Source: Candidatus Moraniibacteriota bacterium (GTDB lineage: Bacteria; Patescibacteriota; Minisyncoccia; Moranbacterales; UBA11712). From it: a stretch of 58,234 bases of DNA. The position numbers were made by a program, and so were the translations under genes. The stretch spans positions 1 to 58,234 of the forward strand of contig JAUXSN010000055.1 of assembly GCA_030679895.1 (NCBI GenBank), given 5' to 3'. Below the pieces are notes generated by a model. That model worked only from the letters and a program-made list of their open reading frames with translations. It was not told the DNA's origin and ran no database searches. Shown here in pieces: positions 1 to 55,761 of the stretch (position 1 is the first letter of the stretch; each line of letters begins with the position of its first letter).

Positions 1-2256
1 GTTGATCTCTCCCGTTGTTCCCGCTTCCAGGTTGATGGCGGTGGCGGCGGTGGAAACGGAGATGGTCGGAGCGGTGGAAGTGAAAGTGAGAGCAGTAGAA
101 GAGGTGGTGATGGTGTCGATTGAGGCGACGCCGGTCAGGGCCGCGGAATTGAAGTTCCAGTCGCCGTTCATGTTTCCGTCCGTGATGGTGTTAGTCCCCA
201 GATCAAGAGTGGTGAAATTTCCCGTTGTCGCCGTGAGCGCCGTGATTCCGGAAAGGTTGCCCGCGTTGAAATCCCAGCTACCGGTCATATTTCCGTCCGT
301 GATTGTATTCGTGCCGAGATCGAGCGTCGAAAGATAGACCGTTGTGAAAATCGGATTGTCGATCGTATCGAGCGTCAGGCTGATTCCCCCGCCAGCCGTA
401 CCCGATCCGCCGCCCTGCATATTCCCTTCCGTATTTACCGTAATGACCGTGCTGCCTTGAGCGATCGTATTTTCCGTCGAGCCGTATGTCGGCGAAACGG
501 TGAGCGTATTCAGTGTCCGCGAAGTCGCAATTCCGTCCGCGCCCGTGAAAATGGCGCCCTTGTTGGCTTTTATTTTCTGCCCCGCGTCTGTCGCGCTCGA
601 TTGCAATTTCCACGCTACATAATTGTCGTACGTTCCCGCCGGCTGATATGATCCAGCGACCTGGAAGGCAGTCGAGTGCTGTCCGTCGAGAAGGTCGGCG
701 TTGAGATTGGTGTTCAGGGTTCCGTTCGAAAGGGGAATATTTCCCGCTCCGTTGCCGATCGTTTGTCCGGCGACACTCATTGCGGTGCGAGCCAGTGGCA
801 TCGCTCCGATTCTCTTGCGCGGCACCATCTCCGCGTCTTCGCCGATCCGGAGGCCGATGTAATAATTCGAAGCGGCGAAATTGAAATTGGCGGGAATGGG
901 CGTTGTCGCGCCAAGATAAGTTTTAAGGAGACCATTTTCGACGACCACCTTTTGCGTTTCTTCCCAGACGCGCGTTCCCTTGTCCGCGTCCGAAGGATAC
1001 GGATCCTGCTCCGTCCGGTCGGCCGTATAAATTCCAAATCTCACCTCGTATTCGCCGTTCGCGATTTCTTTGTCCTCCCCATCCATGAGGTACGCCGAAA
1101 CTTCGATGTCACCGACATTTATTTGCGCCGTGCCGGTCGCCGTCGTCGCCGCCAGCACTTTACCCGCCGATGAGGCGAGCCGGCCGCCATTATCTCCTTG
1201 TTCCGTCTCTACGCCCGCGATCTCTCCTTTCCCATTTTCATCGCCCTTGAGGCTTAACCCCGTATTTTTTTCAAACTCTTTAATCTTTTCCCGCCGCAAA
1301 AAATTTTCGGCAATTTTTGAAAACCTGTCTTTTCCTATTTTCACTTTCGCGATTTGTTTCGCCGCGCCCGCGTCTATCCGCTCCGCGGCTTTCGAAACTC
1401 CATCGACCGCCGCATTGTATGTGAAATATATTTTTTTCTTCCCTTGATCTCCCAAATTTGCCAAATCCGCCTTTGTGATATTTCCAATCACCATCAAAAG
1501 AACCAGCACGATCATCGCCGCCGCCGGCTTCGCGTAATTAAGTTTCAAAAAATCCGACAGCTTCGCTTTTTTTAATTTCGCGAGCGTATTCGTGTCGCCC
1601 ATCTCTTTGAGCTCCCGAAACCAAGTTTTCACGTCTGCCAAAACCTTCGTTGTCCAAAAGCCAAGTTTCTGAAAATATAGCCGTAGCGGCCGCATAAATG
1701 CGGCCTGCGTTTTTTCGGGGCGCACATGCGCGCCCCCTACTTTTTCAACTTCCTCCGGCACGGCAAACTTTTTGTTGCCGCCCAAATCGCGCGAAAGTTT
1801 TTCTTTGAATGTATTTTTCTTCGCCTGTGATTTTTTCGTGAACTCGGCGAGCCACTCCTCCGTCGTGTGCCAAACTCCTTTTATTTTTTTTGCTTTCAGC
1901 TTTCCCTGCCGCGCCGAAAAGTTGATGTAGTTTTTTGAGTAGGTCGAATTTTTCGCTATTTCGGAGAGCAGAACAAAAACCAGATTTTTTTTCGCCTCTT
2001 TCTTTTTCGCGATCTCTGGCTTGTTCTTTGGAAGCTTAGCTTCCAGTGTGGAAGCTAAGCTTCCATTTCCCGGCTCAATTTCTCCGCCATACAACTCCGC
2101 CAGTCTCGCCCTCACATTCTTGATTGCCTTCTTTTCCGTCTCCAAAATTTTCGCAAACTTTTTTTCCGTCAAAAAAAGCCGAATGTTCCGAAAAGCATCC
2201 TCGGCTTTGCCGAAAAATATATCGCTGATTTTTTTTGTGTATTTTTCTTCCTTCAT
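1..2256 (-). CDS. Giant surface/fibre-like protein (continues past window start): N-terminal HTH-like domain, one TM segment, extracellular tail-fibre-like region
   Basis: Manual translation: ATG at 2256 preceded by GAGGT, open for 752 codons to base 1 (absent from the ORF track because there is no stop in the window). Contains LLSEIAKNSTYSKNYINFSARQGKLKAKKIKGVWHTTEEWL (HTH-like), AAAMIVLVLLMVIG (TM), NLNADLLDG and a duplicated TLDLGTNTITDGNM repeat. Confidence 0.85.
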   Translation of the reverse strand, partial: MKEEKYTKKISDIFFGKAEDAFRNIRLFLTEKKFAKILETEKKAIKNVRARLAELYGGEIEPGNGSLASTLEAKLPKNKPEIAKKKEAKKNLVFVLLSEIAKNSTYSKNYINFSARQGKLKAKKIKGVWHTTEEWLAEFTKKSQAKKNTFKEKLSRDLGGNKKFAVPEEVEKVGGAHVRPEKTQAAFMRPLRLYFQKLGFWTTKVLADVKTWFRELKEMGDTNTLAKLKKAKLSDFLKLNYAKPAAAMIVLVLLMVIGNITKADLANLGDQGKKKIYFTYNAAVDGVSKAAERIDAGAAKQIAKVKIGKDRFSKIAENFLRREKIKEFEKNTGLSLKGDENGKGEIAGVETEQGDNGGRLASSAGKVLAATTATGTAQINVGDIEVSAYLMDGEDKEIANGEYEVRFGIYTADRTEQDPYPSDADKGTRVWEETQKVVVENGLLKTYLGATTPIPANFNFAASNYYIGLRIGEDAEMVPRKRIGAMPLARTAMSVAGQTIGNGAGNIPLSNGTLNTNLNADLLDGQHSTAFQVAGSYQPAGTYDNYVAWKLQSSATDAGQKIKANKGAIFTGADGIATSRTLNTLTVSPTYGSTENTIAQGSTVITVNTEGNMQGGGSGTAGGGISLTLDTIDNPIFTTVYLSTLDLGTNTITDGNMTGSWDFNAGNLSGITALTATTGNFTTLDLGTNTITDGNMNGDWNFNSAALTGVASIDTITTSSTALTFTSTAPTISVSTAATAINLEAGTTGEIN
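2029..2065. repeat. 37-bp paired-hairpin palindrome, copy 1 (in frame in the giant gene)
   Basis: tggaagcttagcttcca-gtg-tggaagctaagcttcca; same arms at 20123-20159 and 44402-44438. Confidence 0.95.
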
Positions 2257-3494: not shown

Positions 3495-3644
3495 GAACTC
3501 AAAACTCAAACTGCAAAACGCAAAACCAAAGCGTAAAATTCAAAATTATCTTTTTTAAAATCAGTTTTGCGCTTTGCGTTTTCATTTGTTTGAAAATTGT
3601 GTCATTGGAAATTGAGAATTGATTGTAAATTGAAAATTGGAAAT
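3495..3644. repeat. Composite heptamer-repeat intergenic element
   Basis: caaaacgcaaaaccaaagcg...ttttgcgctttgcgtttt inverted pair, followed by aattgagaattg/aattgaaaattgg units like 30052-30180. Confidence 0.6.
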
Positions 3645-5330: not shown

Positions 5331-6876
5331 ACATCGAATATCTCGCCAGCATTATAATTTCGAGTTCCCGCGCGATTTTTTTCGCCGTCCGGCGGTCAAG
5401 TCCGACTCCCCCCTTCACTATCGGCCGGTCGGCAAGATCAAGAAGCTCGTCCATCGACAGTTCGTTTTCAAGGCGCATTTTGATGTATTCGAGAAATTTA
5501 ATCTTTTCCATTTCACCGAGTTTCAAGTGAAAATTTTCATCCAGATATTGCATAGTATCTTCCGCTGATTTTTCAACATTCGCAAAGTCAATTTTTTTCA
5601 CCTGATCAAAAATTTGCGTGATTCCCTTCACTAATCGTTTGGCCTGATTATGATCCCACCCGGCTCCCCCCTTATTTTCCTCTTCTACAAGCCTTTTTTC
5701 AAAATCCTCAAGTGTGATCCCGCCCGCGATGAAGTCCTGAAAGATTTTCTTGGCGAGATCAAGCTGCACCTCGGGAATATGGAAAAAAATATGGGAGAAA
5801 ATCTGCTGGGCTTTGAATGGAACAAGGAGCGTCCCGACCTGATCGGGAGAAAAATTTCGAAAAGACCGCGTCAGAGCCAGAAGTTCCGGAGAAATATGTT
5901 CGCGCTTTCTTTCGGCGAGATCTTCTTTTTTCACCAGCTCGTATTCTTTGCCCAGATCCCAATCACCGCCCGCTTTTCCTTCCTTGAAAGAGCTCCAGGC
6001 TTTGCCAAGCTCTTCTTTTTTGACGAGTTCCCAGTCTTTATCCAGCTGTCCCTTCTTTTGAAGCTCCCAGGCTTTGCCCAGTATGCCCTCTTTGAATGAT
6101 TCCCATTCCTTCCCGATTTTTTGCTGTTCTTCGAGATATTCCTGATCGCCCTTGGCGCTAGGTGATTTTTTTTCGAGAACCTCGACGATCTTCGTGATCT
6201 TTCCGTCCTGCATATGGATTATCCGGTCGCCGTAAGCGAGATGTGACGGGTCATGGGTAACAAGAATGATGAGTTTCTTGTCAACTTCATTGAGCTCTTT
6301 CAAAATCGTGAGAACATTATAGGTGGCTTTGGAATCAAGGTTTCCCACCGGTTCGTCCGCGACGATGATCGCGGGACTGTTCATAAGCGAGCGGGCGATT
6401 GCCACTCTCTGCCTTTGCCCGCCGGAAAGATCCGCGGGAAATTTTTCGGCTTGCGCTTCGATCCCAAAACGTTTGAGAAAATTCATTCCGTCCTCTCTTC
6501 TTTTTGATGAACTGTCTCCGGAAAAAGCCCGCGGAAGACAGACATTGTCAATCACGGAAAGGGTGGAAACAAGATAAAATGACTGAAAAACCATCCCTAT
6601 TTTGTGGCGATGGAATTCCAGTTTTTCTTTTTCCGAAAAAGAAGTGAGATCGCGGCCGTCGATTTCTATTTTTCCGCCAGTCGGGCGAAGAAGTCCCGTG
6701 ATTATATTGAGGAGCGTCGATTTTCCGCAGCCGGAAGGACCGAAAAGAATGAGGTATTCGTGAGGATATATCTCAAGATCAATATTGTCCAAAATTCTGG
6801 CTTCATTGGCTTTTCCTTCATTGAAGACAGTGCTCAATTTTTCTATTTTTATCAGTGGCGCGGCTGTTGAGTTCAT
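5329..6876 (-). CDS. ABC transporter ATP-binding protein (LolD/MacB-like) with a long C-terminal extension
   Basis: Walker A GPSGCGKST, LSGGQRQR, Walker B IIVADEP, VTHD; about 280 extra C-terminal residues; start taken at MNSTAAP. Confidence 0.9.
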   Translation of the reverse strand: MNSTAAPLIKIEKLSTVFNEGKANEARILDNIDLEIYPHEYLILFGPSGCGKSTLLNIITGLLRPTGGKIEIDGRDLTSFSEKEKLEFHRHKIGMVFQSFYLVSTLSVIDNVCLPRAFSGDSSSKRREDGMNFLKRFGIEAQAEKFPADLSGGQRQRVAIARSLMNSPAIIVADEPVGNLDSKATYNVLTILKELNEVDKKLIILVTHDPSHLAYGDRIIHMQDGKITKIVEVLEKKSPSAKGDQEYLEEQQKIGKEWESFKEGILGKAWELQKKGQLDKDWELVKKEELGKAWSSFKEGKAGGDWDLGKEYELVKKEDLAERKREHISPELLALTRSFRNFSPDQVGTLLVPFKAQQIFSHIFFHIPEVQLDLAKKIFQDFIAGGITLEDFEKRLVEEENKGGAGWDHNQAKRLVKGITQIFDQVKKIDFANVEKSAEDTMQYLDENFHLKLGEMEKIKFLEYIKMRLENELSMDELLDLADRPIVKGGVGLDRRTAKKIARELEIIMLARYSM

Positions 6877-7011
6877 ATGAATATGGGAATTTTTTCTTTT
6901 TACAGTATAACATATATTGTTCCTATCCGCCTCATTGCGGCTATTTGACCCCTCGGACATAAATGGGCTAGAATAGAGCTAGTTATTGTTTGATTTTTAA
7001 AAATAAATATT

Positions 7012-7416
7012 ATGGATCAGCAACAATTAAACAGCCTGCCCGAAAAAACGGCCATTCTCATCGTCGAGGACGATGCTTTTATGGGCAGTCTTTTGGAGCG
7101 GAAATTCGAACAGGAATCTTTCCATATTTTCTTGGCCACAAACGCCGAAAAAGCCCGCGAAATTATCAAGTCCAATCGGATCGCGGTTATTCTTCTTGAT
7201 ATCGTGCTTCCGGGAATGGATGGCTTAGGCTTTCTCAAGGAACTGAAAGCGACTCCCAATTTGAAGGATATTCCGGTTATCATCACCTCCAATCTGGGAA
7301 AACCGGAAGAAATTGAAAGAGGCCTTGCGGAAGGCGCCAGCGGCTACATTATCAAAGCGCAAGTTTCTACGAGCGAAATCGTCCAGAAGGTCAGGGAAGT
7401 TCTCGAAAAAAAATAA
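7012..7416 (+). CDS. Single-domain response regulator (receiver only)
   Basis: ILIVEDD, LLDIVLPGMDG, PVIITS, YIIKA; no output domain. Confidence 0.92.
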   Translation: MDQQQLNSLPEKTAILIVEDDAFMGSLLERKFEQESFHIFLATNAEKAREIIKSNRIAVILLDIVLPGMDGLGFLKELKATPNLKDIPVIITSNLGKPEEIERGLAEGASGYIIKAQVSTSEIVQKVREVLEKK

Positions 7417-18376: not shown

Positions 18377-20872
18377 TTAGATTACGAAATTTATCAATCT
18401 GTCTCTTACAAAAATTATTTTCTTAATCGAACTGTCTCCAATATATTTTACTATTTTATCCTGCGCCAGCGCCAATTCTTTCGCGTCTTTTTCCTTGACA
18501 CCCGATGCGACCTCGATCTGATCCCGCACCTTGCCGTTTATTTGGATAACAAGCATTATTTGTTCGTCTTTTATCAGCTTTGGATCATATTCCGGCCATT
18601 TTTCAAAGAATATAGATTTGTCGTGGCCTAGTTTTTCCCAAATTTCTTCAGCGATGTGAGGAACAAAGGGAGATAATAATTTAATGAACAGTGAACAGTG
18701 AACAGTGAACAGTCTTTCTTGTTTTTCAAGTTCATTTAGAAAGATCATCAATGCAGATATAGCGGTATTAAATCGGAAACTCTCTATATCTTCTGTGACT
18801 TTTTTAATAGTTTTGTGTAATAAAATTTCTAAATTATTGTTCACTGATCGCTGTTCGCTGATCACTGACTTCAACTTCCAGACTTTGTCCAGGAAGCGTC
18901 GCATCCCCACCACGCCTTTCGTGTTCCAGGCGATATTTTGCATGAACGGACCCATGAACATTTCGTAGAGCCGAATCGAATCCGCGCCGTATTCGAAAAT
19001 CACTTCATCGGGATTGATGACGTTTCCCCAGCGCTTGGACATTTTTCTTCCGTCTTCTCCTTGGATGAGTCCAACGTGCACCAATTTCTTGAAGGGTTCT
19101 TTTGTGGAGACCACTCCGATGTCGTATAAAAATTTGTGCCAGAAGCGGGCGTAAAGAAGATGCCGCGTCGCGTGTTCCGCTCCGCCGACATAGAGATCAA
19201 CGGGCATCCATTTTTTTTCTTCTGTCTTACCCACCAATTCTTTTTCGTTCTTTGGATCGATATAGCGAAGATAATACCAGGAAGATCCCGCCCATTGCGG
19301 CATCGTATTCGTCTCGCGTTTTCCCGGTCCCCCGCACTGCGGACATTCCGCATTCACCCATTCTTTGATGTTTGCCAGCGGCCCCTCCCCTGTTCCGGTC
19401 GGTTCGTATTTTTCCACTTTCGGAAGTTCAACCGGCAGATCTTTTTCCGGAACGCCGACCGTTCCGCATTTTTCGCAGTGAATGATCGGGATCGGCTCGC
19501 CCCAATATCTCTGCCGTGAAAAAACCCAATCCCGCATTTTATAATTAACTTTCTTCCCGCCGATCTTTTTCTTCTCCAGCCACGCAGCCATTTTTTCACG
19601 AGCTTTTTCGGAAGTGAGATCGGAATATTTTCCGGAGTTTACTAATTTTCCGTCACATATAAAGCAATCTGATTCGACCCGCAACTCCGTTCTGGCGCCA
19701 GCCGCAATATCTTCCAAATTTCTTGGAATATTTAATAATTCTTCAGGGAGGATTACTTTCTTGATCGGCAACTTATACTTTTTCGCAAACTCAAAATCCC
19801 GTTCGTCATGCGCCGGAACCGCCATCACCGCGCCGGTGCCATAATGGCCAAGAACGTAATCAGCGACAAATAGCGGTAATTCTTCATTATTAAAAGGATT
19901 AGTTACTCTTATACCTTGAAGTTCAACTCCCGTTTTTTCTTTTTGCAGATCAGTCCGCTCCAGATCGGTTTTGTTTTGCGCCTTGATAACATATTTCTCA
20001 ACTTCTTTGTAGTTTTTAATTTGATCTTTCAGTTTTTCGATAATTGGATGCTCCGGACCAACAACGCAGTATGTGCAACCAAAAATAGTATCCAAGCGAG
20101 TCGTAAAAACTTCGAGCATATTTGGAAGCTTAGCTTCCATTGTGGAAGCTAAGCTTCCATTAGTCACAATTGAAAATTTCACGATTGCTCCTTCGCTTCT
20201 TCCGATCCAGTTTTTTTGCTGGTCAACAATGGATTTTTCCCAGTCCAACTCTTCCCTGTCCAGATCTTCAAGCAGCCGATCGGCATAATCCGTCATTTTG
20301 AGCACCCATTGGCGCATTTTTTTCTGGACAACCTGCGTGCCACAGCGTTCGCAAAGGCCGTTTTCGAGATCCTCTAGAGCCAGTCCCGTTTGGCAGGAGG
20401 GGCACCAGTTGATCGGCTCGTCGGATTCAAAAGCCAGGCCTTTCTCAAACATCTTGAGAAAGATCCACTGCGTCCATTTATAATATTCCGGATCAGTTGT
20501 ATTTATTTCCCGGTCCCAGTCGTACGTGAAACCAAACAGCCCAAGCTGTTTTTTGAAAGTTTTGATGTTTTCTTTGACTGCCGCCTCGGGATGAATTTTA
20601 TTTTGGATGGCATAGTTCTCGGCCGGAAGACCAAAAGCGTCCCAGCCCATCGGATGAAGGACTGAAAACCCATTGAGCATCTTGAAGCGCGAAACGACAT
20701 CGGTCGCAATATATCCTTTGGGATGCCCGACATGAAGACCTGCTCCCGAAGGATAAGGAAACATATCGAGAGCATAGAATTTCTTTGGCTTCGAATAGTC
20801 CTTATATATACCACTTTCCGCCCATTTCTTCTGCCATTTCCGCTCGATTAATTTTGGATTATATTTCTTCAT
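18377..20872 (-). CDS. leuS: Leucine--tRNA ligase
   Basis: MFPYPSGAGLHVGH, GWDAFGLPAEN, KMSKR, VFTT editing domain; start taken at MKKYNP. Confidence 0.98.
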   Translation of the reverse strand: MKKYNPKLIERKWQKKWAESGIYKDYSKPKKFYALDMFPYPSGAGLHVGHPKGYIATDVVSRFKMLNGFSVLHPMGWDAFGLPAENYAIQNKIHPEAAVKENIKTFKKQLGLFGFTYDWDREINTTDPEYYKWTQWIFLKMFEKGLAFESDEPINWCPSCQTGLALEDLENGLCERCGTQVVQKKMRQWVLKMTDYADRLLEDLDREELDWEKSIVDQQKNWIGRSEGAIVKFSIVTNGSLASTMEAKLPNMLEVFTTRLDTIFGCTYCVVGPEHPIIEKLKDQIKNYKEVEKYVIKAQNKTDLERTDLQKEKTGVELQGIRVTNPFNNEELPLFVADYVLGHYGTGAVMAVPAHDERDFEFAKKYKLPIKKVILPEELLNIPRNLEDIAAGARTELRVESDCFICDGKLVNSGKYSDLTSEKAREKMAAWLEKKKIGGKKVNYKMRDWVFSRQRYWGEPIPIIHCEKCGTVGVPEKDLPVELPKVEKYEPTGTGEGPLANIKEWVNAECPQCGGPGKRETNTMPQWAGSSWYYLRYIDPKNEKELVGKTEEKKWMPVDLYVGGAEHATRHLLYARFWHKFLYDIGVVSTKEPFKKLVHVGLIQGEDGRKMSKRWGNVINPDEVIFEYGADSIRLYEMFMGPFMQNIAWNTKGVVGMRRFLDKVWKLKSVISEQRSVNNNLEILLHKTIKKVTEDIESFRFNTAISALMIFLNELEKQERLFTVHCSLFIKLLSPFVPHIAEEIWEKLGHDKSIFFEKWPEYDPKLIKDEQIMLVIQINGKVRDQIEVASGVKEKDAKELALAQDKIVKYIGDSSIKKIIFVRDRLINFVI
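18685..18712. repeat. (TGAACAG)4 heptamer array inside leuS
   Basis: Read directly; encodes LFTVHCSLF. Confidence 0.9.
18842..18869. repeat. Degenerate CACTGAT heptamer array inside leuS
   Basis: cactgat cgctgtt cgctgat cactgac; encodes SVISEQRSV. Confidence 0.75.
20123..20159. repeat. 37-bp paired-hairpin palindrome, copy 2 (in frame in leuS)
   Basis: tggaagcttagcttcca-ttg-tggaagctaagcttcca. Confidence 0.95.
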
Positions 20873-20924
20873 AAAACACAATTAATACTTCTACAATCTA
20901 GCCTATTTTCAAGTTTTTATCAAG

Positions 20925-23976: not shown

Positions 23977-24008
23977 GATATATAGTAGGTTTAAAACTTA
24001 GCTCAAAT

Positions 24009-24105
24009 CTCAAAATTCAAAGCGTAAAGCCACAGCGCAAAGCGTAAAATTTTTTAGTCTTTAGCTTTGAGTTGTGGTTTTGAGTTTTGCGCTTTGCGTT
24101 TTGCG
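24009..24105. repeat. 97-bp heptamer-derived inverted-repeat element, copy A (after atpC)
   Basis: About 5 mismatches versus 29586-29682. Confidence 0.9.
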
Positions 24106-24106
24106 T

Positions 24107-24547
24107 TTACTCAATCCTCATTCCCCTCCTCGTCAAATGCTTTCGCGCCACTTTTATTCTGGCTAAGTTCTTCTCGAAGATCGCCGCCACGGTCGCGTAT
24201 TGGACTTCATCAGTCTGAATCCTTTCTTCTTTCAATTTTTCGGCTCGATCTTTCGCCTCTTCAGCCCGTTTGATGTCAATTTCTTCCGCCCGCTCGGCCG
24301 TGTCAGCCAAAATCGTAATTTCGTTTTTGCGAACTTCAACCATCCCGCCTGAAACCGCCATCGCGATTTCTTCGCCATCTTTTTTCGCGACTAGCTCTCC
24401 TGGTGCCAAAACGGAAATGAGCGGAATATGGTTTGGAAGCACGGTAATCTCTCCTTCTTGGGTAGGAAGGGTGACTTGATCAATGCTATCCTCGTAGACT
24501 GTTTTTTCAGGAGTTACTATTTTAAATTTTATCTTTTTGCCATTCAC
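24107..24547 (-). CDS. atpC: ATP synthase epsilon subunit
   Basis: KFKIVTPE, GEITVLPNHIPLIS, ITILADTAE; GTG start inferred. Confidence 0.93.
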   Translation of the reverse strand: MNGKKIKFKIVTPEKTVYEDSIDQVTLPTQEGEITVLPNHIPLISVLAPGELVAKKDGEEIAMAVSGGMVEVRKNEITILADTAERAEEIDIKRAEEAKDRAEKLKEERIQTDEVQYATVAAIFEKNLARIKVARKHLTRRGMRIE

Positions 24548-29567: not shown

Positions 29568-29585
29568 AGTATTTTTAGTTCAAAG

Positions 29586-29682
29586 CTCAAAATTCAAAGC
29601 GCAAAGCCACAGTGTAAAGCGTAAAGTTTTTTAGTTTTTAGCTTTGAGTTGTGGTTTTGAGTTTTGCGCTTTGCGTTTTGCG
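29586..29682. repeat. 97-bp heptamer-derived inverted-repeat element, copy B (after atpE)
   Basis: Near identical to 24009-24105. Confidence 0.9.
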
Positions 29683-29689
29683 CTTGAAA

Positions 29690-38891: not shown

Positions 38892-38939
38892 TACCCAAGA
38901 GCTTAGCTCTTGGGTATTTGCATAGAGGTTTAACCTCTA
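38892..38939. repeat. Two adjacent perfect mini-hairpins between glyQS and pepA
   Basis: tacccaagagct-t-agctcttgggta (38892-38916) and tagaggt-tta-acctcta (38923-38939). Confidence 0.8.
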
Positions 38940-42014: not shown

Positions 42015-43298
42015 TCAGGACAGTTTCTTCATCAGCAGCGACTTTTGAGGGAATTTCCCCAGTAACCTAACAAAACAAACGTTCTTGCTCCCTCCATGGG
42101 CAGACCCGACTGATTCGCCTTTTTCGTTTTTTATCTCCTCTACTCGCGAAATAAAAATGTTTTTCGGGGTAATAATTTCAACTTTTTCACCAGTCTTAAG
42201 CGCATTATGCGCTTTTATTTTTTGCCAGCTTTTTCTATTTTTCCCGATAATTTCCCCTACAAATTGATAACTATTTTCCCGATGGGAACAGTCAGAATTA
42301 TTCTCCCATTTATCCTTTCCGAATAAAAACCCGGTTGAGTATCCCCGATTTGTCAGTTTATTCAATTCATTTTTTTCCGCCTTGATAATCTTATTTAACT
42401 CTTTTTCTGATTTTTTGCTTCCAATCGCGTCAATTACTCGGCGATAGGCTTTTGTTGAAACAGCCGCGTAGAAAACACTTTTTGTCCTTCCTTCAATCTT
42501 AAACGCATTTATCCCGGCCTTGGCCAATTTATCCAGATGCTCGATCAAACAAAGATCTTTGGAATTTAGAAAGTATGTTCCGTGTGAATCTTCTTCCACG
42601 GTCATAATTTTTGAATCATCCGCATATAAAATGTCCGTCCCGCTCTGCGGGACACCAAAGTTTTGCGCTTTGCACTTTGCTCTTTGCACTTTATATTTCC
42701 ATCGGCACGGCTGAACGCAGTCCCCCAAATTGGCGCTCCGATACCGCATCCAGCTGGATAGCAAACATCGCCCGGAAAGACTCATGCACATCGCCCCGTG
42801 AACAAAATATTCGAGTTCTATTTTCGGACACGCTTTCCTGATTTTTTTGATTTCTTCAAGCGTAACTTCCCGCGCCAGAACTATTCTTGACACTCCCTGC
42901 AACCGCCAAAATTTTACCGCTTCCGAATTTGTGGTATTGGCCTGCGTGGAAAGATGGATCTTGATTTTTGGAGAATGCTTTTTAACCAGGCTTAATATTC
43001 CGGGATCGCTGACGATCACCGCGTCGGGCTTGATTTTTTTTATAAACGCGAGATGTTTTTTTATTTCAGCCAAATGCCGCTGATGCGCATAAATATTGAG
43101 CGTAAAGTATATTTTTTTGTCGAGCTTTCGCGCCGCGTCCACCGCTTTTTTTAGATTCTTTTCGCCAAAATCATTGAGTCTTGCCCGAAGAGAAAAATCC
43201 GGATGACCGATATAGACCGCATCCGCGCCGAAGTGATAGGCATATTCAATTTTCTCAAGACTCCCGCCGGGAGCGACAAGTTCGATTTTTTTGACCAT
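42015..43298 (-). CDS. U32 family protein (TrhP/YegQ-like tRNA hydroxylation)
   Basis: ELVAPGG, GADAVY, HGAMC.S.SGRC, C.QPCRW, SKDLC, KIEGR.KS. Confidence 0.9.
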   Translation of the reverse strand: MVKKIELVAPGGSLEKIEYAYHFGADAVYIGHPDFSLRARLNDFGEKNLKKAVDAARKLDKKIYFTLNIYAHQRHLAEIKKHLAFIKKIKPDAVIVSDPGILSLVKKHSPKIKIHLSTQANTTNSEAVKFWRLQGVSRIVLAREVTLEEIKKIRKACPKIELEYFVHGAMCMSLSGRCLLSSWMRYRSANLGDCVQPCRWKYKVQRAKCKAQNFGVPQSGTDILYADDSKIMTVEEDSHGTYFLNSKDLCLIEHLDKLAKAGINAFKIEGRTKSVFYAAVSTKAYRRVIDAIGSKKSEKELNKIIKAEKNELNKLTNRGYSTGFLFGKDKWENNSDCSHRENSYQFVGEIIGKNRKSWQKIKAHNALKTGEKVEIITPKNIFISRVEEIKNEKGESVGSAHGGSKNVCFVRLLGKFPQKSLLMKKLS

Positions 43299-44176: not shown

Positions 44177-45421
<1,245 letters not shown>

Positions 45422-49196: not shown

Positions 49197-52133
49197 TTAA
49201 ACCCTTTTGAGCCACACTTTGATAGCTTCCGCTTCCAGATCCAAAAGTTCGGAAATATCGGCGTCGGTTTTTTCGTCTTCCGTTTCTATCGCTCCCGTCG
49301 CCAGAACTTCCCGAGCTATCAAATCGCCGAATTTTTCAAAAATAGCGGTTCCCCCTTTATAGTACACATTTATCCTGTCGTCAACCTGGAATCCGGCATG
49401 TTTGCGAAGCTCTTGGATTCTTCTCACAATTTCGCGCGCCTCCCCTTCCAGCCGCAAATCATCCGAAATCGCCGTGTCGAGGCCGATCATCCAGTTTCCT
49501 TCTTTCTCGGTATAAATGCCGGCTTTCATTTCAACCGATCCGTAAAACTTGATTTCTTTTACGTTTACTTCGTCCTTTATCAGGTTCGCTAAATCTTCGT
49601 CCACCGGCTGATTGATTTGCAGCTCGGAAAGCGGCTGGCGGACTTTGATTCCCGCTTTCGCTCTCGCCGCCAGTCCCAGTTTCACAAACCGGCGCGTGAT
49701 CTGCATTTGCTCGTTGAGTTCCTTATCAATCAACTTTTCATTTTCTGCGGGAAAATTCGCCAAGTGAACAGAATCTTCTCCCGAGAGATTCTTATAGACT
49801 TCCTCCGCGACAAACGGCGTGAAGGGCGCCATCAGTTTCGAAAGCTCCGTTAAAACGTAGTGCAAAGTTTCATATGCCTGTTTTTTGTCCTCGTCATTCT
49901 CGCTTTTCCAGAATCTCTTCCGGCTCCGGCGGATATACCAATTGGAAAGATTATCAATAAACACCGGAAACAACCTTGCTGCTTTATTTAACTCATAATT
50001 CTCCATGTGCTGATTGACGTTTTTGATCAAGCTGTTCAGCTCTGAAATGATCCACTTGTCGAGCAAGTTCCCAAGGTCCGACCTTGAGACGTTCCCAAGG
50101 TCCGACCTTGGTTCGAACTTATCTATATTCGCGTAAAGCACGAAAAATGAATACGTATTCCAAAGCATCCGGAACATTCCTTTGAAAATATCTTTTAGAT
50201 CTTCATCGTTGAAGTTCAAATTTTCTCCTCCCATGAGGGGAGACTGCATCAGATAAAATCTAAAAGCATCGGCGCCGTATCGGTCGATCAGGATATTCGG
50301 ATCAGTGAAATTTCCAAGCGACTTCGACATCTTCTTTCCGTCGCTTCCGGCGATCGTTCCAGTCGTGACCGCGTTCAAGAAGCTTGACTTTCCAAAGAGA
50401 CCGACGGAAAGCACGTGAAGCGTATAAAACCAGCCCCTTGTTTGAGCAATATATTCGGAAATAAACTGAGCGGGAAATCTGTTCTTGAATTCTTCTTTAT
50501 TTTCAAAAGGATAATGAAATTCAGCAAATGGCATCGACCCCGATTCAACCCAGCAATCAAAAACATCCGATATTCTTTTCATCACTCCGCCGCACTTTTC
50601 GCAGGGAAAAGTTATCTCGTCAATCATCGGCCGATGATAGTCTTCGAGTCTCTTTCCGGATAGCTTTTCCAGTTCTCCAAACGACCCGATTATTTTCGCG
50701 TTGTTACATTCCAAAGCTTTGCGCTTTGAGCTTTGCGCTTTGAGCTTATTCTCGCACTCCCAAATCGGCATAGGCGTTCCCCAAAAACGGGAGCGGGAAA
50801 CATTCCAATCGGGAGCCGTTTCAAGACCATTCTTAAATCTTCCTTCTTTGAGATGCGCCGGATGCCAGTTAATTTTTTCATTTTCGTCAAGCAATTTTTT
50901 CTTGAGATCGGAAATCTTGATAAACCACGCCGGTTGAACCATGTATATGAGTTTCGTGTGGCAACGATAGCAAAACGGATAAGAATGAGAGATATTTTCT
51001 TTTTTAAAAACAAGGCCCTGTTCGGCGATATGCTTTAATATTTTAAAATTCGCTTCCCAGACATTTTCACCAGCCCATTTTCCATCTTTGAATTTTCCTT
51101 CGTCGTCCACATTTTCAATGATGGGTAAATTTTTTTCTTTTCGCGTTCGAAAGTCATCTTCCCCGAAAGCCGGAGCTATGTGCACAATTCCCGTTCCTTC
51201 CTCCAGACTTACAAAATCACCGGAGACTACCCGATAACCGTTTTTAATTTTTTGAGGAAAAATCGGTTGATAGATAAGATTAACCAAATCTTTTCCTGTC
51301 ATTTCTTTTTCTATTTTATAATCTCCACTGATAATTTCTAGCCTTTCTTTGGCTAGAATATATTTTTCTCCGTCTTGTTTTACCAGTGCATAGATTGCAT
51401 TCGGATTGACGGCGATCGCGACATTCCCCGGCAATGTCCAGGGAGTAGTCGTCCATACTAAAAATTTTGCGGCTTTAAAATCCTCCTCATCTTCGATTTT
51501 CAATTTGAAATATACAGAAGCGTCTTGTACATCACGATAGCTCGAATCCATAGCAATTTCAAAATTGGAAAGCGGCGTCGCGCAACGCGGGCAATAAAGA
51601 GAAATTCGAGAATCTTTATATACCAGTTTTTTATTGTGCAACTCTTTGAATCCCCACCAGACTGATTCCATAAAATCGTTGTCCATCGTCTTGTAGGAAT
51701 TGTCAAAATCTACCCAGCGCCCGATTCGGCGAATGGTTTTCCGCCATTCGTCCGCGAATTGCAGAACTGTATTTCTAGCCTCATCGTTGAATTTAGCGAT
51801 ATTTTTTTCGATGTCTTTTTTTCCTTTGTAGTCGAATTTTTTTTCAATAATATTTTCAATCGGCAGGCCGTGCGTATCCCATCCCCAGCGGCGCGGCACA
51901 TTATATCCCTTCATCGTCCAGTACCGAGGAACTACATCTTTCGAGGTCGAGGCTAAAAGATGGCCGTGGTGAGGCAGGCCCGTCGCGAACGGCGGACCGT
52001 CATAAAAAGAATAGAGCTCCGCATCCTTGCGGTTCTCCAAAGATTTTTCGAATATTTTATTCTCTTCCCAGAATTTGAGGATATTTTCCTCCATTTCAGG
52101 AAGGGATTGTTTTGGATCGACAGGTTTCAACAT
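49197..52133 (-). CDS. ileS: Isoleucine--tRNA ligase, type 2 (archaeal/eukaryote-like)
   Basis: FYDGPPFATGLPHHGH, WTTTPWTLP, QTRGWFYTL, KMSKS, no C-terminal FPG-type zinc finger. Confidence 0.97.
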   Translation of the reverse strand: MLKPVDPKQSLPEMEENILKFWEENKIFEKSLENRKDAELYSFYDGPPFATGLPHHGHLLASTSKDVVPRYWTMKGYNVPRRWGWDTHGLPIENIIEKKFDYKGKKDIEKNIAKFNDEARNTVLQFADEWRKTIRRIGRWVDFDNSYKTMDNDFMESVWWGFKELHNKKLVYKDSRISLYCPRCATPLSNFEIAMDSSYRDVQDASVYFKLKIEDEEDFKAAKFLVWTTTPWTLPGNVAIAVNPNAIYALVKQDGEKYILAKERLEIISGDYKIEKEMTGKDLVNLIYQPIFPQKIKNGYRVVSGDFVSLEEGTGIVHIAPAFGEDDFRTRKEKNLPIIENVDDEGKFKDGKWAGENVWEANFKILKHIAEQGLVFKKENISHSYPFCYRCHTKLIYMVQPAWFIKISDLKKKLLDENEKINWHPAHLKEGRFKNGLETAPDWNVSRSRFWGTPMPIWECENKLKAQSSKRKALECNNAKIIGSFGELEKLSGKRLEDYHRPMIDEITFPCEKCGGVMKRISDVFDCWVESGSMPFAEFHYPFENKEEFKNRFPAQFISEYIAQTRGWFYTLHVLSVGLFGKSSFLNAVTTGTIAGSDGKKMSKSLGNFTDPNILIDRYGADAFRFYLMQSPLMGGENLNFNDEDLKDIFKGMFRMLWNTYSFFVLYANIDKFEPRSDLGNVSRSDLGNLLDKWIISELNSLIKNVNQHMENYELNKAARLFPVFIDNLSNWYIRRSRKRFWKSENDEDKKQAYETLHYVLTELSKLMAPFTPFVAEEVYKNLSGEDSVHLANFPAENEKLIDKELNEQMQITRRFVKLGLAARAKAGIKVRQPLSELQINQPVDEDLANLIKDEVNVKEIKFYGSVEMKAGIYTEKEGNWMIGLDTAISDDLRLEGEAREIVRRIQELRKHAGFQVDDRINVYYKGGTAIFEKFGDLIAREVLATGAIETEDEKTDADISELLDLEAEAIKVWLKRV
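50067..50110. repeat. 24-bp-period direct repeat of a CCG-triloop hairpin inside ileS
   Basis: gttcccaaggtccgaccttg twice; encodes RSDLGNVSRSDLGN. Confidence 0.9.
50717..50747. repeat. CTTTGCG/CTTTGAG heptamer array inside ileS
   Basis: Encodes KLKAQSSKRKA; 20-mer ctttgcgctttgagcttatt is identical to intergenic 2843-2862. Confidence 0.85.
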
Positions 52134-52230
52134 AACAAAAAATATTATCTAAACCCCTTTAGACATTTAACCTTTATTTTTGACAATCGTCAACTTCGTT
52201 GAGCATGTAAAGTTTAGGGAGTCTGTTCCC

Positions 52231-54609
52231 CTACCTCACCCTCACCTTCACTTTTCTTTTAGCCATGTTCCCGGCGCGGTCATAGGTGCGGATGATAAGC
52301 TTATGGCTGCCTTTTTTGAGGTTTTCCGGCAGGGTGAACTGGGCAATGGCGGATTGGGACTTTACTCCCCGGAAAGTCAGCCGGTAATGGTCGATTTGGT
52401 CGTTGTCTGTTGTGCTCCAGGTGATGGTATCTCCGGGGGAGGCATTGATTGTTTTGGGGAGGTTGGTGATCTTGGGATTCAATCTGTCGATGAGGATGGT
52501 ATAGGTGGGAGAAACCAGGAGGACTTGTTTGTCTTTGTTGAGGTATTTGAATTGATAGGTATGGGTTTGGTTCTTCCTGGGTTTAGTGCGGAATCGGTAG
52601 CGGTGGTTTTTGTTGATTTTGACGTTCTTGAGGAGTTTTCCGTCCTGGAAGATCTGGACAATGGTGGCCGTGGAGAGGTTTTCCACCTTGCCGGAGAAAA
52701 CCAGGTAGGGAGATCTGAGAGTGATCTGGTTGTCTGGATCGAGGTTGAGGGTGGTGTGGTTGCCGATCTTGATGACTGGAGTGTAGGTGGAATTGGAGAA
52801 GTTGAGGGTGAGACTGTGAAGAACAGGAGTCTGATTTTGGTCGGTGGTGGAAAGGGTGGCTCGGTATTGGATGTAACGGGCGTCTCTGGAAGCTATGGAG
52901 TCAGAGGCGTCTTTCCAGTCTTCCCAAGTATCGTCGGGTGTAGGAGTGTCCCCGACTCTGGTTTGGTAGGTGATGGAGGTATTGGCGGGTTTTGTGGCGT
53001 CTTCGGTGAGGGCTCCCCATTGACTGGTGTTTCCGGAGTCGAGGACGGGAGAGGTGAAGAGGCCGGATGTTCCATATAATCCTTCAGATTCACGGGCGTA
53101 CTTAATTTCAACGCTGTTGAGACTGGGGGTGATGGAAGTGTTGTTGGTGGAAAGGACCGCTTTGTACCGGAGGCTATAGGCGGAGTTTACGGGGAGATAG
53201 TGAGTTCCCTCTTCTGTTCCGAGGCTTTCGTAGGTTTTTCCTGAGTCGAGGGAGTAAAGAAGCTCCACTGAAGTTCCGCTTGGGGTGGTGGAGTCCCAGT
53301 TTATTGAGGAGTAGAATTCTTTTTGGTAGGCGTCGGAGAGATAGGTGGTGGGAAGTTTGTAGACGTCGTCGGCGGAATTCCAATCAGTATCTTTTCCGCC
53401 GATAATGAAGATGTCGCCGTTGACGATTTGGGCGGCAGTGCGATGAAGCGATAAGGGAAGGTCAGTTAATTTGTTCCAGGAGTCGGTTTCCGGATTATAG
53501 ATTAAAATATCGTCAACAGGATCCCAGTCATTATTTGTCCCCCCGATAACGAGCATTTTACCATCGATAATAGCTGAGGAAAGTCCAGACCTGGCTTCCG
53601 GCATGGAAGCTTTGGTTTCCCAGGTATCAGTAGCTATATCATATACTTCTAGAATATTAGTGAACGTATAATCATCTCCACCTCCCGCTACATATATTTT
53701 TCCTCCAATGGCTTGCGCCGTGACACCCTGGCCTCTGGGCGTCGGCATTGGCGTTTTAGTTTCCCAGGTATTGCTTGTCGGGTCATATACTTCAACAGTG
53801 TCAAATGATTCGCCCCAATCACCTGACTTTCCTTCCGATCCGCCAATTACGTATAATTTTCCATCAAAAACCGCAGAAGCTGGCCCTGTCCTTGCTGTGG
53901 GCATTGAGGCTTTGGTTTCCCAGGTATTACTTGAAGGATTATAGATCTCGAGAGTTGCCATGGAGTTCCAGTCTTTATCTCGTCCTCCAACGACATAGAG
54001 TTTTCCGTCAATGACAGCCGAAGCAGGAGTTACTCTTGGCTCTGAAAGCGAAGCTTTGTCTGTCCAGGTGTCATTTTCCGGATCATACATTTCCATAGTT
54101 GCCTGATCATCCCAATCCTTTGTGCCGCCTGCCACGTATATTTTTCCATCTATCACTCCGGAGGAGGAGGCAATTCGGGCTGTGCCCATTGAGGTTTTGG
54201 TTTGCCAAAAGGTACCTGCACGATCAATATTTTTACTTATATATAAACCTTGCTCATTAAAACCATTCCCTAAATTAATTACATTTATGCCTCCCCCATC
54301 AGTTACGACATATAGGAGATTATTTGCATGGTCGATAAAAGTATTGCGGATACGATTGCAATTCAAGCCTGGCGTAGAATTAGAGTCATAAAACTTGTGC
54401 AGAACATCATCTGATGGATCCTTATTACCCTTAGTATCTACCACAGACAAACCACTAGTTTGATAACCATCGTAGGTTCCGATGTAGAGAAGATTTCCAT
54501 CGACTAACACGTGGGTAACATTATTGAAAGTCAATGCGGGGCTAGAAGCAGTTGTGAAATTAGTAACTAATGCATCATCAGAGGTATCTTTGGTTCCCTT
54601 CGTGTCCAC
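52231..54609 (-). CDS. 3' part of a frameshifted surface protein: propeller repeats, Kelch propeller, FN3/Ig-like and basic C-terminal domains
   Basis: Six Kelch repeats (GKIYVAGG...E.YDP..DTW); frame continues from 54578..55735 across a TA tract. Confidence 0.85.
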   Translation of the reverse strand: MDTKGTKDTSDDALVTNFTTASSPALTFNNVTHVLVDGNLLYIGTYDGYQTSGLSVVDTKGNKDPSDDVLHKFYDSNSTPGLNCNRIRNTFIDHANNLLYVVTDGGGINVINLGNGFNEQGLYISKNIDRAGTFWQTKTSMGTARIASSSGVIDGKIYVAGGTKDWDDQATMEMYDPENDTWTDKASLSEPRVTPASAVIDGKLYVVGGRDKDWNSMATLEIYNPSSNTWETKASMPTARTGPASAVFDGKLYVIGGSEGKSGDWGESFDTVEVYDPTSNTWETKTPMPTPRGQGVTAQAIGGKIYVAGGGDDYTFTNILEVYDIATDTWETKASMPEARSGLSSAIIDGKMLVIGGTNNDWDPVDDILIYNPETDSWNKLTDLPLSLHRTAAQIVNGDIFIIGGKDTDWNSADDVYKLPTTYLSDAYQKEFYSSINWDSTTPSGTSVELLYSLDSGKTYESLGTEEGTHYLPVNSAYSLRYKAVLSTNNTSITPSLNSVEIKYARESEGLYGTSGLFTSPVLDSGNTSQWGALTEDATKPANTSITYQTRVGDTPTPDDTWEDWKDASDSIASRDARYIQYRATLSTTDQNQTPVLHSLTLNFSNSTYTPVIKIGNHTTLNLDPDNQITLRSPYLVFSGKVENLSTATIVQIFQDGKLLKNVKINKNHRYRFRTKPRKNQTHTYQFKYLNKDKQVLLVSPTYTILIDRLNPKITNLPKTINASPGDTITWSTTDNDQIDHYRLTFRGVKSQSAIAQFTLPENLKKGSHKLIIRTYDRAGNMAKRKVKVRVR

Positions 54610-55735
54610 TACTGATAGTCCAGAACTTGTACATATATATATATAGCAGATTATCTGATTGATTTAAATACACATAACCTACACTGTTTCCAATAATGGC
54701 TGGCGATGTAGATGTATTATAAGTCTTCACTACTAAGTCAGTATTTATGTCAAGAACTGAAAGACCGTTGTTCGTGCTGACATAAAGCAAGTCATTGGCT
54801 TCATCAAACAAAACTTGAGAGATGCTATTACCGGCAATAGCCGGAGTTGACGATGTTCTATAGGTTTTGATTAGAACATCATCTGCTGGATCAACTGTCC
54901 CCTTCGTGTCGATCACAGATAGTCCATTGCCCGTGGAAACATACAACCGATTCCGTTGGGTATCAAGATATGAAGAATTGATTTCGTTACTAGCAATGGC
55001 GGGAGTGGAAGTCGTAGAATATCTAATAACTAAAGTATCGTCCGATGGATCTTTTGTTCCTTGGGTATTGATAACTGATAGCCCTCCAGGACCAGTGCTT
55101 CCATATGTAATGGTGCTCACGTAAAGGAGATTATGATCCTTATCAAGGAAGGAGTGTAAAACTACATTACTGCCAATAGCCGGATTTGTATCCACCCTAT
55201 AATTCATGACTAGCGTGTCGTCATTGGGAAGAGGGGTGCCTTTCGTATCAAGCACTGACAATCCCCCCAAATCAGTTCCGTAATATACAGGCCAACCCCA
55301 AGTACTGACATAAATGAGATTATCTGAAAAATCTGCAAAAGCGTGCATTGCATATTGATGACCTATGGCTGGAACGGTGTCTGAACTATAATAATAGGTA
55401 TATCCTTTACCAAGTGTTAGCTCACTGTCTTCACTCTCTGAAATGTTAGTTCTGTTATAGCCTGAGTCTGGTTGAATATCTCCTCTCTCAAAATCCTCTT
55501 TCGTCGTCTCCGTATAGGTATTGAGGTTCTGTTTGAGTTTCACATCCCCCGGCGCTTGGTTGAGCTCGAGGGTGTTGTCGACGGCTCCAGCTTGGAAATC
55601 AGCTTGGGTGTCTTGGATAATCTGTCCACTAGCCGCATTCGCTTTCTTAGTCTGCAAGGGATAAGGAAAAACAATCGCTAGGGTCAAAAGCAGTGCTGAA
55701 AATATTTTTATTCTTTTTTTTCTTTGTCTTTTCAT
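54578..55735 (-). CDS. 5' part of the same surface protein: signal peptide plus LVIVD-like propeller repeats
   Basis: Signal peptide ending ANAA; repeats NLLYVST..GLSV.DT.GT.DP.DD; reading frame derails at LLYIYMY. Confidence 0.85.
   Translation of the reverse strand: MKRQRKKRIKIFSALLLTLAIVFPYPLQTKKANAASGQIIQDTQADFQAGAVDNTLELNQAPGDVKLKQNLNTYTETTKEDFERGDIQPDSGYNRTNISESEDSELTLGKGYTYYYSSDTVPAIGHQYAMHAFADFSDNLIYVSTWGWPVYYGTDLGGLSVLDTKGTPLPNDDTLVMNYRVDTNPAIGSNVVLHSFLDKDHNLLYVSTITYGSTGPGGLSVINTQGTKDPSDDTLVIRYSTTSTPAIASNEINSSYLDTQRNRLYVSTGNGLSVIDTKGTVDPADDVLIKTYRTSSTPAIAGNSISQVLFDEANDLLYVSTNNGLSVLDINTDLVVKTYNTSTSPAIIGNSVGYVYLNQSDNLLYIYMYKFWTISSGHEGNQRYL
54633..54645. repeat. (AT)n microsatellite at the frameshift
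   Basis: atatatatatata, 13 nt; 9 or 15 nt would restore the frame. Confidence 0.9.
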
Positions 55736-55761
55736 TTTTCATCTTTCTTTTAGCTGTTCCC

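Follow-up and report, generated by a model that had tools for sequence, protein, structure and literature searches.

The element and its copies in the window

We analyzed a complete contig of a Candidatus Moraniibacteriota bacterium (JAUXSN010000055.1; 58,234 bp, hereafter the window), in which a short palindromic element, labeled type A, resides within three protein-coding genes. All three genes lie on the minus strand and code for the N-terminal part of a giant protein (1-2256), leucyl-tRNA synthetase (LeuRS, 18377-20881) and tRNA-guanine transglycosylase (Tgt, 44177-45406). An earlier note on this DNA, based on the letters alone, had described a 37-bp palindrome in each of these genes, with identical arms and a variable centre. 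The description is accurate. The pattern TGGAAGCTTAGCTTCCA-NNN-TGGAAGCTAAGCTTCCA has exactly three exact matches in the window (2029-2065, 20123-20159 and 44402-44438), the arms are identical in all of them, and the 3-nt centre alone varies (GTG, TTG and CCG, respectively). No further type-A doublets were detected in the window with up to three mismatches allowed. By chance, 0.00 doublets are expected (100 dinucleotide shuffles of the window) versus three observed; for single arms the numbers are 0.08 and six. An Rfam scan of the window matched no family.

All three copies are read in one common phase within long minus-strand reading frames, giving the peptide N-GSLAST[L/M/V]EAKLP, and they have common flanks on the plus strand (TT...TT), as the earlier note had also stated. 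The first copy encodes GSLASTLEAKLP within a K/E-rich N-terminal linker of the giant protein (GN-GSLASTLEAKLP-KN). The second, encoding GSLASTMEAKLP (TN-GSLASTMEAKLP-NM), falls into a beta-hairpin turn of LeuRS directly before the editing-domain motif VFTTRLD. The third encodes 12 residues of a Tgt loop, with RHGSLFVW and FYKTINITN on either side. A peptide spanning the junction, with insert and host residues, is exemplified by IVTNGSLASTMEAKLPNMLEVF. The other two phases of the element contain TAG or TAA on either strand, leaving a single stop-free phase. Since the DNA is palindromic, GSLASxxEAKLP is encoded by both strands.

As single-stranded DNA (ssDNA), each copy has a single 17-bp hairpin as its predicted minimum-energy fold, with an energy of -19.7 kcal/mol (z = -8 to -10). 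Each arm is self-complementary as well (7 bp with a 3-nt loop) and forms a hairpin in its own right. The doublet is made of two 17-nt hairpin units of the repetitive extragenic palindrome (REP) type (T-GGAAGC-TTA-GCTTCC-A and its reverse complement) with a 3-nt spacer. Being a perfect palindrome with two HindIII sites, the element might at first be taken for a synthetic sequence, and the earlier note had raised the possibility of an assembly artefact. It might be argued that a palindromic linker from the library or a chimeric junction is responsible. However, the same gene continues in frame across both flanks, and assemblies made independently (JGI, ENA and Logan) contain the element at the orthologous position in Tgt. 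Furthermore, the family described below has more than 100 members in metagenome-assembled genomes (MAGs) of many studies, including variants with compensatory changes. The independent assemblies and the family-wide matches in GTDB refute the artefact, the chance of which we consider practically nil.

Host genes and insertion sites

The gene for the giant protein continues beyond the start of the window, its open frame covering positions 1-2274. A public protein, P0241, begins at residue 7 of this frame (hereafter, P numbers denote homologous proteins and L numbers denote DNA stretches or contigs of relatives). Homologues have lengths up to 2305-4120 aa, and no domain was found in a Pfam scan of the 758 aa visible in the window. 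The linker that accommodates the insert is variable in length among homologues, and in P0337 it holds a different family member, GDSISIMEIESP. Downstream of the variable linker there is a conserved N-terminal segment, LSEIAKNSTYSKNYINFSARQGKLKAKKIGGVWHTTEEWLAEF (window 1-2256, P0242-P0244). As a separate observation, the giant-protein open reading frame (ORF) in L001, which also bears a type-A copy, includes two GTAG-tagged perfect palindromes, GTAGAGACGCGATTAATCGCGTCTCTAC (254-281) and GTAGAGACGAGGCATTGCCTCGTCTCTAC (1223-1251), and the same is true of L002. A classical GTAG-REP family thus appears to coexist in L001 and L002, where it would likewise be translated.

LeuRS was identified by its match to the Thermus thermophilus enzyme (1H3N, E=1.7e-210). 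With respect to this structure, the insert occupies the turn of the beta-hairpin leading into VFTTRPDT. In the LeuRS orthologue of L129 the site is empty and exactly 12 codons shorter (KFSIVTN[GSLASTMEAKLP]NMLEVF in the window versus KFKINKD-YNLEVF in L129). The difference between the filled and the empty site is 36 nt, the two sequences being too diverged to place the junction at the nucleotide level. At the very codon of the type-A insert, LeuRS sequences of L101, L128 and L074 have GGSTSI(M/R)EVEPP.

Tgt (PF01702) has two different palindromic inserts. Its closest homologues are labeled Candidatus Moranbacteria or Parcubacteria. At the type-A site most of the 120 aligned homologues have a short loop (KD-KKKNI), and in the same loop L009 and L011 carry variants of the same architecture (GGAGGTTCGACCTCC and GGAGGTTTGACCTCC, respectively), in which both stems have changed in a compensatory manner. 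The second insert, a sibling element labeled type C (45057-45100; CGAGGTCTCACCTCG-AGCCGGCT-CGAGGTGAGACCTCG), is another double hairpin (-22.2 kcal/mol as ssDNA) and encodes 14 residues in frame in a second loop. Most homologues have a short loop, RRGDKSS, at this site; P0002, P0004 and P0010 share the insert, and its DNA was confirmed in L130. When mapped onto the AlphaFold2 model of the window Tgt (mean predicted local distance difference test score, pLDDT, of 85.8), the type-A insert lies with low confidence between strands 315-319 and 341-345, and pLDDT drops below 50 at residues 101-113, which correspond to type C. According to the model, then, the inserts sit in low-confidence loops between well-modelled strands.

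The earlier note had proposed comparing orthologues in search of empty sites. Such sites are indeed present, namely the 12-codon gap in LeuRS and the short Tgt loops, and relatives lacking the repeat do not have an alignable loop of equal length. Judging from these alignments, the type-A copies are insertions relative to orthologues.

The two Tgt loops (after RHGSLFVW and after FSLAG) are also hot spots for many unrelated short inserts among homologues P0002-P0120. These include the FLRSDLRKS, NLRLNLKKS and VHPVKS...FNR types as well as low-complexity QSEFPISNFQF types. At the DNA level, the FLRSDLRKS insert is a hairpin, TTCCTAAGATCGGATCTTAGGAA (L130). Another candidate, the insert ARNASRAKLALRSDAGG of L131, was rejected as a palindromic element. 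Its DNA is non-palindromic, and therefore the inserts in the hot loops are not all of the palindrome kind.

The element family in other genomes

The exact type-A doublet has no match among 185,579 GTDB species representatives, placing the source lineage outside the representatives. It is, however, present on seven metagenome contigs, and in six of the seven it occupies a long ORF in the same phase. The hosts are the Tgt orthologue (at the window's site), glutamyl-tRNA synthetase (GluRS), cysteinyl-tRNA synthetase (CysRS), glutamate dehydrogenase and, on two contigs, the giant-protein orthologue at a different site. Finding the same DNA in these unrelated genes of independent metagenomes supports the idea of a mobile mini-element that adds loops to proteins, put forward in the earlier note.

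To cover more distant members, we used a degenerate pattern, TGGARRYNNNRYYTCCANNNNGGARRYNNNRYYTCC, which represents the architecture GGARRY-NNN-RYYTCC, twice and inverted. At least 117 GTDB stretches matched versus about one expected by chance in 596 Gb. Among the matches listed, nearly all are MAGs of Moranbacteria, Parcubacteria or Patescibacteria from many studies. The same pattern had no matches in viral contigs. Although only purine/pyrimidine classes were demanded by the pattern, the arms are complementary at 15 of 15 positions in nearly all of the 141 raw matches. The 134 matches that could be typed fall into 47 arm types (for a non-A example see GGAGGCTCGACCTCC), with palindromy kept by compensatory changes. 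The dominant arm type is particular to each genome. Genomes of relatives were sampled as 8-20-kb pieces only; the fetched parts of two MAGs contained 21 and 16 family members. There is usually one copy per 8-kb stretch and no regular arrays are formed, for which reason a CRISPR repeat was rejected.

After removal of redundancy, 139 copies remained. Defining intragenic copies as those within an open frame of at least 150 aa, we assigned 75 of them to genes, while the other 64 are in short frames and were taken as intergenic. Intragenic copies use phase 0 (GGA as a codon) 54 times, phase 1 13 times and phase 2 eight times. Where all three phases are open, as in 40 of the intragenic copies, the respective counts are 24, 13 and 3. 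The peptides specified by copies in the other phases, e.g. WRLDLHYGGRAS, are unrelated. Intragenic type-A copies used their sole open phase in every case seen. Because all-open members occupy all three phases, insertion itself is not phase-specific; the filtering is by stop codons and by tolerance of the peptide. The claim of selection keeping in-frame copies is upheld in that only stop-free copies persist within genes, but the in-frame position does not stem from insertion as such, given the 24:13:3 distribution and the fact that nearly half of the copies are apparently intergenic.

These data also bear on the possibility that GSLASxxEAKLP is a functional protein motif, which arose by convergence or exon-like shuffling, and that the palindrome is incidental. 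Phase 0 (G-G/S-x-x-S..E-x-x-x-P) is preferred even with all phases open, and several of the hosts are tRNA enzymes (LeuRS, Tgt, GluRS and CysRS). On the other hand, hosts also include glutamate dehydrogenase, the giant protein and, as shown below, a transposase; in the structure model the insert forms a loop of low confidence, and the hairpin loop is where its two variable residues are encoded. In addition, synonymous sites are identical at the codon level. Two Tgt orthologues with type A are 75-76% identical in protein sequence to the window Tgt. Third codon positions agree with theirs at 11 of 12 sites within the element, compared with 0.47-0.48 in the remainder of the gene, and the differences within the element are confined to central (loop) codons. 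The identical 12 codons, the third-position identity and the intergenic and other-phase copies, which encode unrelated peptides, all indicate that copying acts on the DNA and not on the peptide. Contradicted by phase usage and third-position identity, the protein motif appears very improbable. A protein search with an X-padded motif alignment found nothing and yields no proteome-wide count of GSLASxxEAKLP.

The arms can also be read as 17-bp terminal inverted repeats. No consistent target-site duplication accompanies them, and no DDE gene is linked to family elements except for one near Tgt in L010. Beside the core, nothing but T/A is apparent in flank logos, which is in part imposed by the search pattern.

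Many intergenic doublets are located centrally in a conserved repeat of ~110 nt (ATACCAAATCAAxTAAA...CAA-doublet-AACG...TAATTAAGTTxATTCxGTAT). It was seen in L022 (e.g. 5509-5633), L027, L040, L016, L085, L035, L037, L063 and others, with several copies in several MAGs. Rfam has no family for this intergenic repeat.

A linked Y1 transposase

The earlier note had suggested that a nuclease of the HUH type, such as a REP-associated tyrosine transposase (RAYT), might co-occur with the element. Such a gene was found in related genomes, though none is present in the window. In L009, a neighbor of Tgt codes for a 222-aa Y1_Tnp protein and has inverted hairpins on both sides. The Pfam scores for Y1_Tnp ('Transposase IS200 like') are 27-31 bits against a threshold of 23. 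Homologues (42-47% identity) occur in eight 8-kb GTDB stretches that had been selected by the element. A profile search collected 6006 Y1 homologues, some of them named 'REP element-mobilizing transposase RayT' by JGI. Across 60 homologues there is little or no variation in the HUH motif (H-Y/F-H) or at the tyrosine of SAYVN.

Every Y1 gene examined is flanked by hairpins or doublets and, in addition, has a matching hairpin or doublet inside the ORF, at about residues 60-80. The hairpin type at Y1 loci varies between genomes and is consistent within a locus. Flanking repeats of the locus's own type are present in L072, L061, L110, L122 and L071, and those of type A in L129. The internal element was detected in the Y1 genes of L009 (gene at 6576-7311), L072, L061, L087, L122, L110, L041, L071 and L129. 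Separately, the match between internal and flanking copies holds also for types that do not begin with GGA (GACAAGAG..., TTTCCTAAAAC... and GGACATCGAATGTCC), and the Y1 gene of L110 has a second internal copy (EAKPPIGGLAS).

Type A itself is linked to Y1 genes. Its peptide is internal in several Y1 homologues, including P0133 (NGSLASTMEAKLPN), the closest type-A RAYT; P0138 is a further protein linked to type A. The Y1 ORF of L129 contains a slightly decayed type-A doublet, a type-A arm lies 2 nt past the stop codon, a related doublet lies 12 nt ahead of the start codon, and further type-A arms are found in intergenic DNA nearby. The hairpin to be expected as a flank of a putative cognate Y1_Tnp gene in the source genome is TGGAAGCTWAGCTTCCA. 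A Y1 locus was fetched for seven genomes, and in four of them the arm type linked to Y1 is also the one that dominates among the dispersed copies. Independently of these loci, the window has a single perfect hairpin, TACCCAAGAGCTTAGCTCTTGGGTA (38892-38916), at the point where two minus-strand genes meet; it resembles GACAAGAGCTCAACTCTTGTC, which flanks the L009 Y1 gene, and its centre, AGCTTAGCT, is common to type A.

The AlphaFold2 model of the type-A-linked Y1 protein (pLDDT 87.2) has a RAYT-like fold, in which the internal element is a disordered loop. Its top Foldseek match is 4ER8, the Escherichia coli RAYT with a REP hairpin (E=6.9e-7, TM-score 0.71), followed by TnpA of IS608 and ISDra2.

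The linkage also allows another possibility to be weighed, that the host retains the palindrome as a nucleic-acid signal, through selection and not transposition. A nucleoid, segregation or uptake protein might bind it, or it might act within the mRNA as a hairpin that modulates translation or decay. Conservation is perfect in the arms, with the centre and the synonymous sites of the gene saturated, the same sites are occupied in genomes with ~75% protein identity, and the hairpin is very stable; moreover, such host roles are known for described REPs (PMC3733652). However, a site for a host factor would be expected to stay conserved, whereas related genomes differ in their arms, of which 47 variants are on record. 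The copies are insertions relative to orthologues, they are tightly linked to a transposase gene both physically and in sequence, and the window has only three per 58 kb without any positional pattern. A host signal, which is compatible with mobility, seems to us quite improbable as the explanation.

Origin of the element

RAYTs and TnpA proteins of IS200/IS605 insertion sequences are HUH tyrosine enzymes that bind ssDNA hairpins and cut at the hairpin foot; excision and insertion proceed without target duplication. Against this background, we consider it probable that the 36-37-nt element, a member of a large Patescibacteria family, is a doublet resembling REPINs (REP doublets forming hairpins), and that it is copied by a Y1 HUH transposase of the RAYT/IS200 type, giving rise to translated loop insertions. 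An enzyme encoded elsewhere in the genome would recognize the hairpin, and the doublet would be mobilized in trans around the genome as single-stranded DNA. The net gain is 12 codons, so that the downstream frame is not shifted and the reading frame is always kept. An intragenic copy would survive only in a stop-free phase (one of three for type A) and in a tolerant surface loop, and would then be translated as GSLASxxEAKLP. This mechanism would account for copies being in frame and in loops, for types being particular to each genome, and for the Y1 linkage.

A related alternative is that the doublets are minimal non-autonomous derivatives, comprising the left and the right end, of a still mobile IS200/IS605-type insertion sequence. 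They would then resemble palindrome-associated transposable elements (PATEs) or miniature transposable elements with inverted repeats (MITEs) rather than products of a domesticated, vertically inherited RAYT/REPIN system. The Y1 HUH chemistry on ssDNA would be the same and the evolutionary status different. This alternative receives support from the comparison of two syntenic loci. The spacer between the M32 and M16 peptidase genes is only 3 nt long in L008 (6457-6459), i.e. empty, while in L009 (6580-7322) it is occupied by the Y1 cassette, ~740 nt with the two flanking hairpins. The cassette may have been either inserted or lost. The Pfam assignment and the strong fold matches to TnpA of IS608 and ISDra2 point in the same direction, as does the low score of the Y1 protein against the curated RAYT model (see below). 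Nevertheless, the best fold match is a RAYT and not a TnpA of the IS200 type, and the protein has ~220 aa with a C-terminal extension compared with ~130-150 aa for the matched IS200 TnpA chains. The fetched DNA contains 139 doublets versus nine Y1 genes, and no TnpB partner gene was seen adjoining the Y1 genes. Overall, we regard descent from a mobile insertion sequence as unlikely.

Several observations nevertheless weigh against a REPIN-like doublet copied by a RAYT-type enzyme. The L009/L008 presence/absence pattern is closer to what a mobile unit of the IS200 type would show than to a RAYT that is domesticated and single-copy. The sole NCBIfam match of the protein, REP_Tyr_transpos (NF047646, an equivalog family), scores 15.7-30.7 bits against a cut-off of 80, and searches of PDB sequences with the RAYT-like protein or its profile gave no matches. 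The hairpins have no GTAG/CGTC tag, their foot being T-GGA...TCC-A. The doublets found in two genomes are of another type than the hairpins linked to the RAYT. AA/A is frequent on both flanks, but no consistent target-site rule or duplication emerged. As the window, which is the whole contig, contains no Y1 gene, the cognate enzyme has to be assumed in the source genome. Finally, across genomes, exactly one and the same codon of LeuRS is filled by different family members, and so it is with Tgt and with the Y1 gene; simple random transposition does not explain this. Three options may be considered: repeated targeting, precise excision followed by re-insertion, and replacement of an existing hairpin.

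A more specific version of the REPIN-like scenario is possible, although we offer it only tentatively. According to it, Patescibacteria have a distinct REPIN-RAYT partnership with a 'translatable' 12-codon module, which resides largely in essential genes and at a fixed site in its own transposase ORF, where it co-varies with the flanking and dispersed copies. Reuse of the same codon would then reflect in-place replacement, by excision and re-insertion or by homing into the hairpin, and not independent hits or vertical decay. Such an arrangement could couple enzyme specificity to the gene or autoregulate both.

Comparison with known systems

The closest parallel is provided by the REP/REPIN-RAYT systems of Gammaproteobacteria, exemplified by E. 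coli TnpA-REP (4ER8) and Pseudomonas REPINs. The common features are short palindromic units, an inverted doublet folding into one hairpin, many dispersed copies of a genome-specific sequence type, and a Y1 HUH gene that has these repeats on either side (a 'REPtron'), here in relatives, with a RAYT as the best structural match. Besides the absence of the tag, the Moranbacteria doublet differs in being only 36-37 nt long. REPs are mainly extragenic, whereas here about half of the copies (75/139), and all three in the window, are in ORFs. Moreover, the Patescibacteria Y1 gene has a matching copy in its own ORF, and the protein is very divergent and comes from a different host phylum, Patescibacteria. 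REPIN-associated RAYTs are known chiefly from Pseudomonas and Enterobacteria (PMC5581495). Our full-text literature search found no paper pairing RAYT or REPIN with Patescibacteria.

The earlier note had likened the element to Rickettsia palindromic elements (RPEs). The analogy is sound as far as in-frame palindromes in unrelated ORFs are concerned, but REP/REPIN-RAYT fits better in terms of length and transposase. RPE-1-type elements are ~100-150 bp, about three times longer than the Moranbacteria doublet, and we know of no dedicated transposase linked to RPEs. The unit described here corresponds to 12 codons, a cognate Y1 gene was identified in relatives, and both length and host set it apart. 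What RPEs and intragenic REPs do share with it is the in-frame location in unrelated functional genes, tolerated in surface regions, and multiple families per genome. Palindromes inserted in frame have thus been documented before, in RPEs and in the intragenic REPs of Opitutus terrae and Thauera (Di Nocera et al. 2013, PMC3733652).

IS200/IS605 elements (IS608, ISDra2) resemble the present system in having a Y1 HUH transposase that recognizes subterminal ssDNA hairpins, and in the presence or absence of a cassette as between L009 and L008. As these elements leave and enter DNA seamlessly and do not duplicate the target, reading frames would stay intact. In contrast, the Patescibacteria Y1 genes are flanked by perfect near-identical palindromes instead of dissimilar left and right ends, no tnpB was seen beside them, and non-coding doublets greatly outnumber the Y1 gene.

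Palindromic amphipathic repeat coding elements (PARCELs) are longer, form tandem arrays and encode amphipathic repeats in surface proteins; to our knowledge, they have no transposase link. As with type A, they are palindromic DNA in coding regions and encode similar peptides on both strands (PMC2996958).

Other repeats in the window

Intergenic A/G-rich repeats of AAAGCGCAAAGCC-like units are present at 23998-24108, 29575-29685, 2761-2855, 3501-3545, 42655-42691 and 50711-50747. The first two are a 111-nt pair, 93% identical and ~5.6 kb apart, in an apparent ATP synthase region, where ORFs were assigned by inspection and L129 synteny only. At 52180-58234 there are two large minus-strand ORFs with extensive internal and mutual repeats (periods of ~141-162 nt, with blocks recurring at ~3.53 kb). 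They probably code for repeat-domain surface proteins.

Implications

By anatomy and gene linkage, the Patescibacteria system is of the REP/REPIN-RAYT type and represents a variation on it. Such systems have so far been studied almost only in Proteobacteria and as extragenic DNA, whereas here the same logic appears in ultra-small, gene-dense genomes. Intergenic space being scarce, the elements would persist as translated 12-residue loops in housekeeping enzymes and even in their own transposase. The 47 arm variants with matching enzymes constitute a covariation set, and the compact hairpin/enzyme pair lends itself to the analysis of Y1 HUH specificity. The insertions also provide a natural map of sites at which proteins tolerate additional residues. 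For annotation and structure prediction they call for caution, in that such loops would be mobile DNA and not function. The element explains some of the lineage-specific insertions in loops of these proteins.

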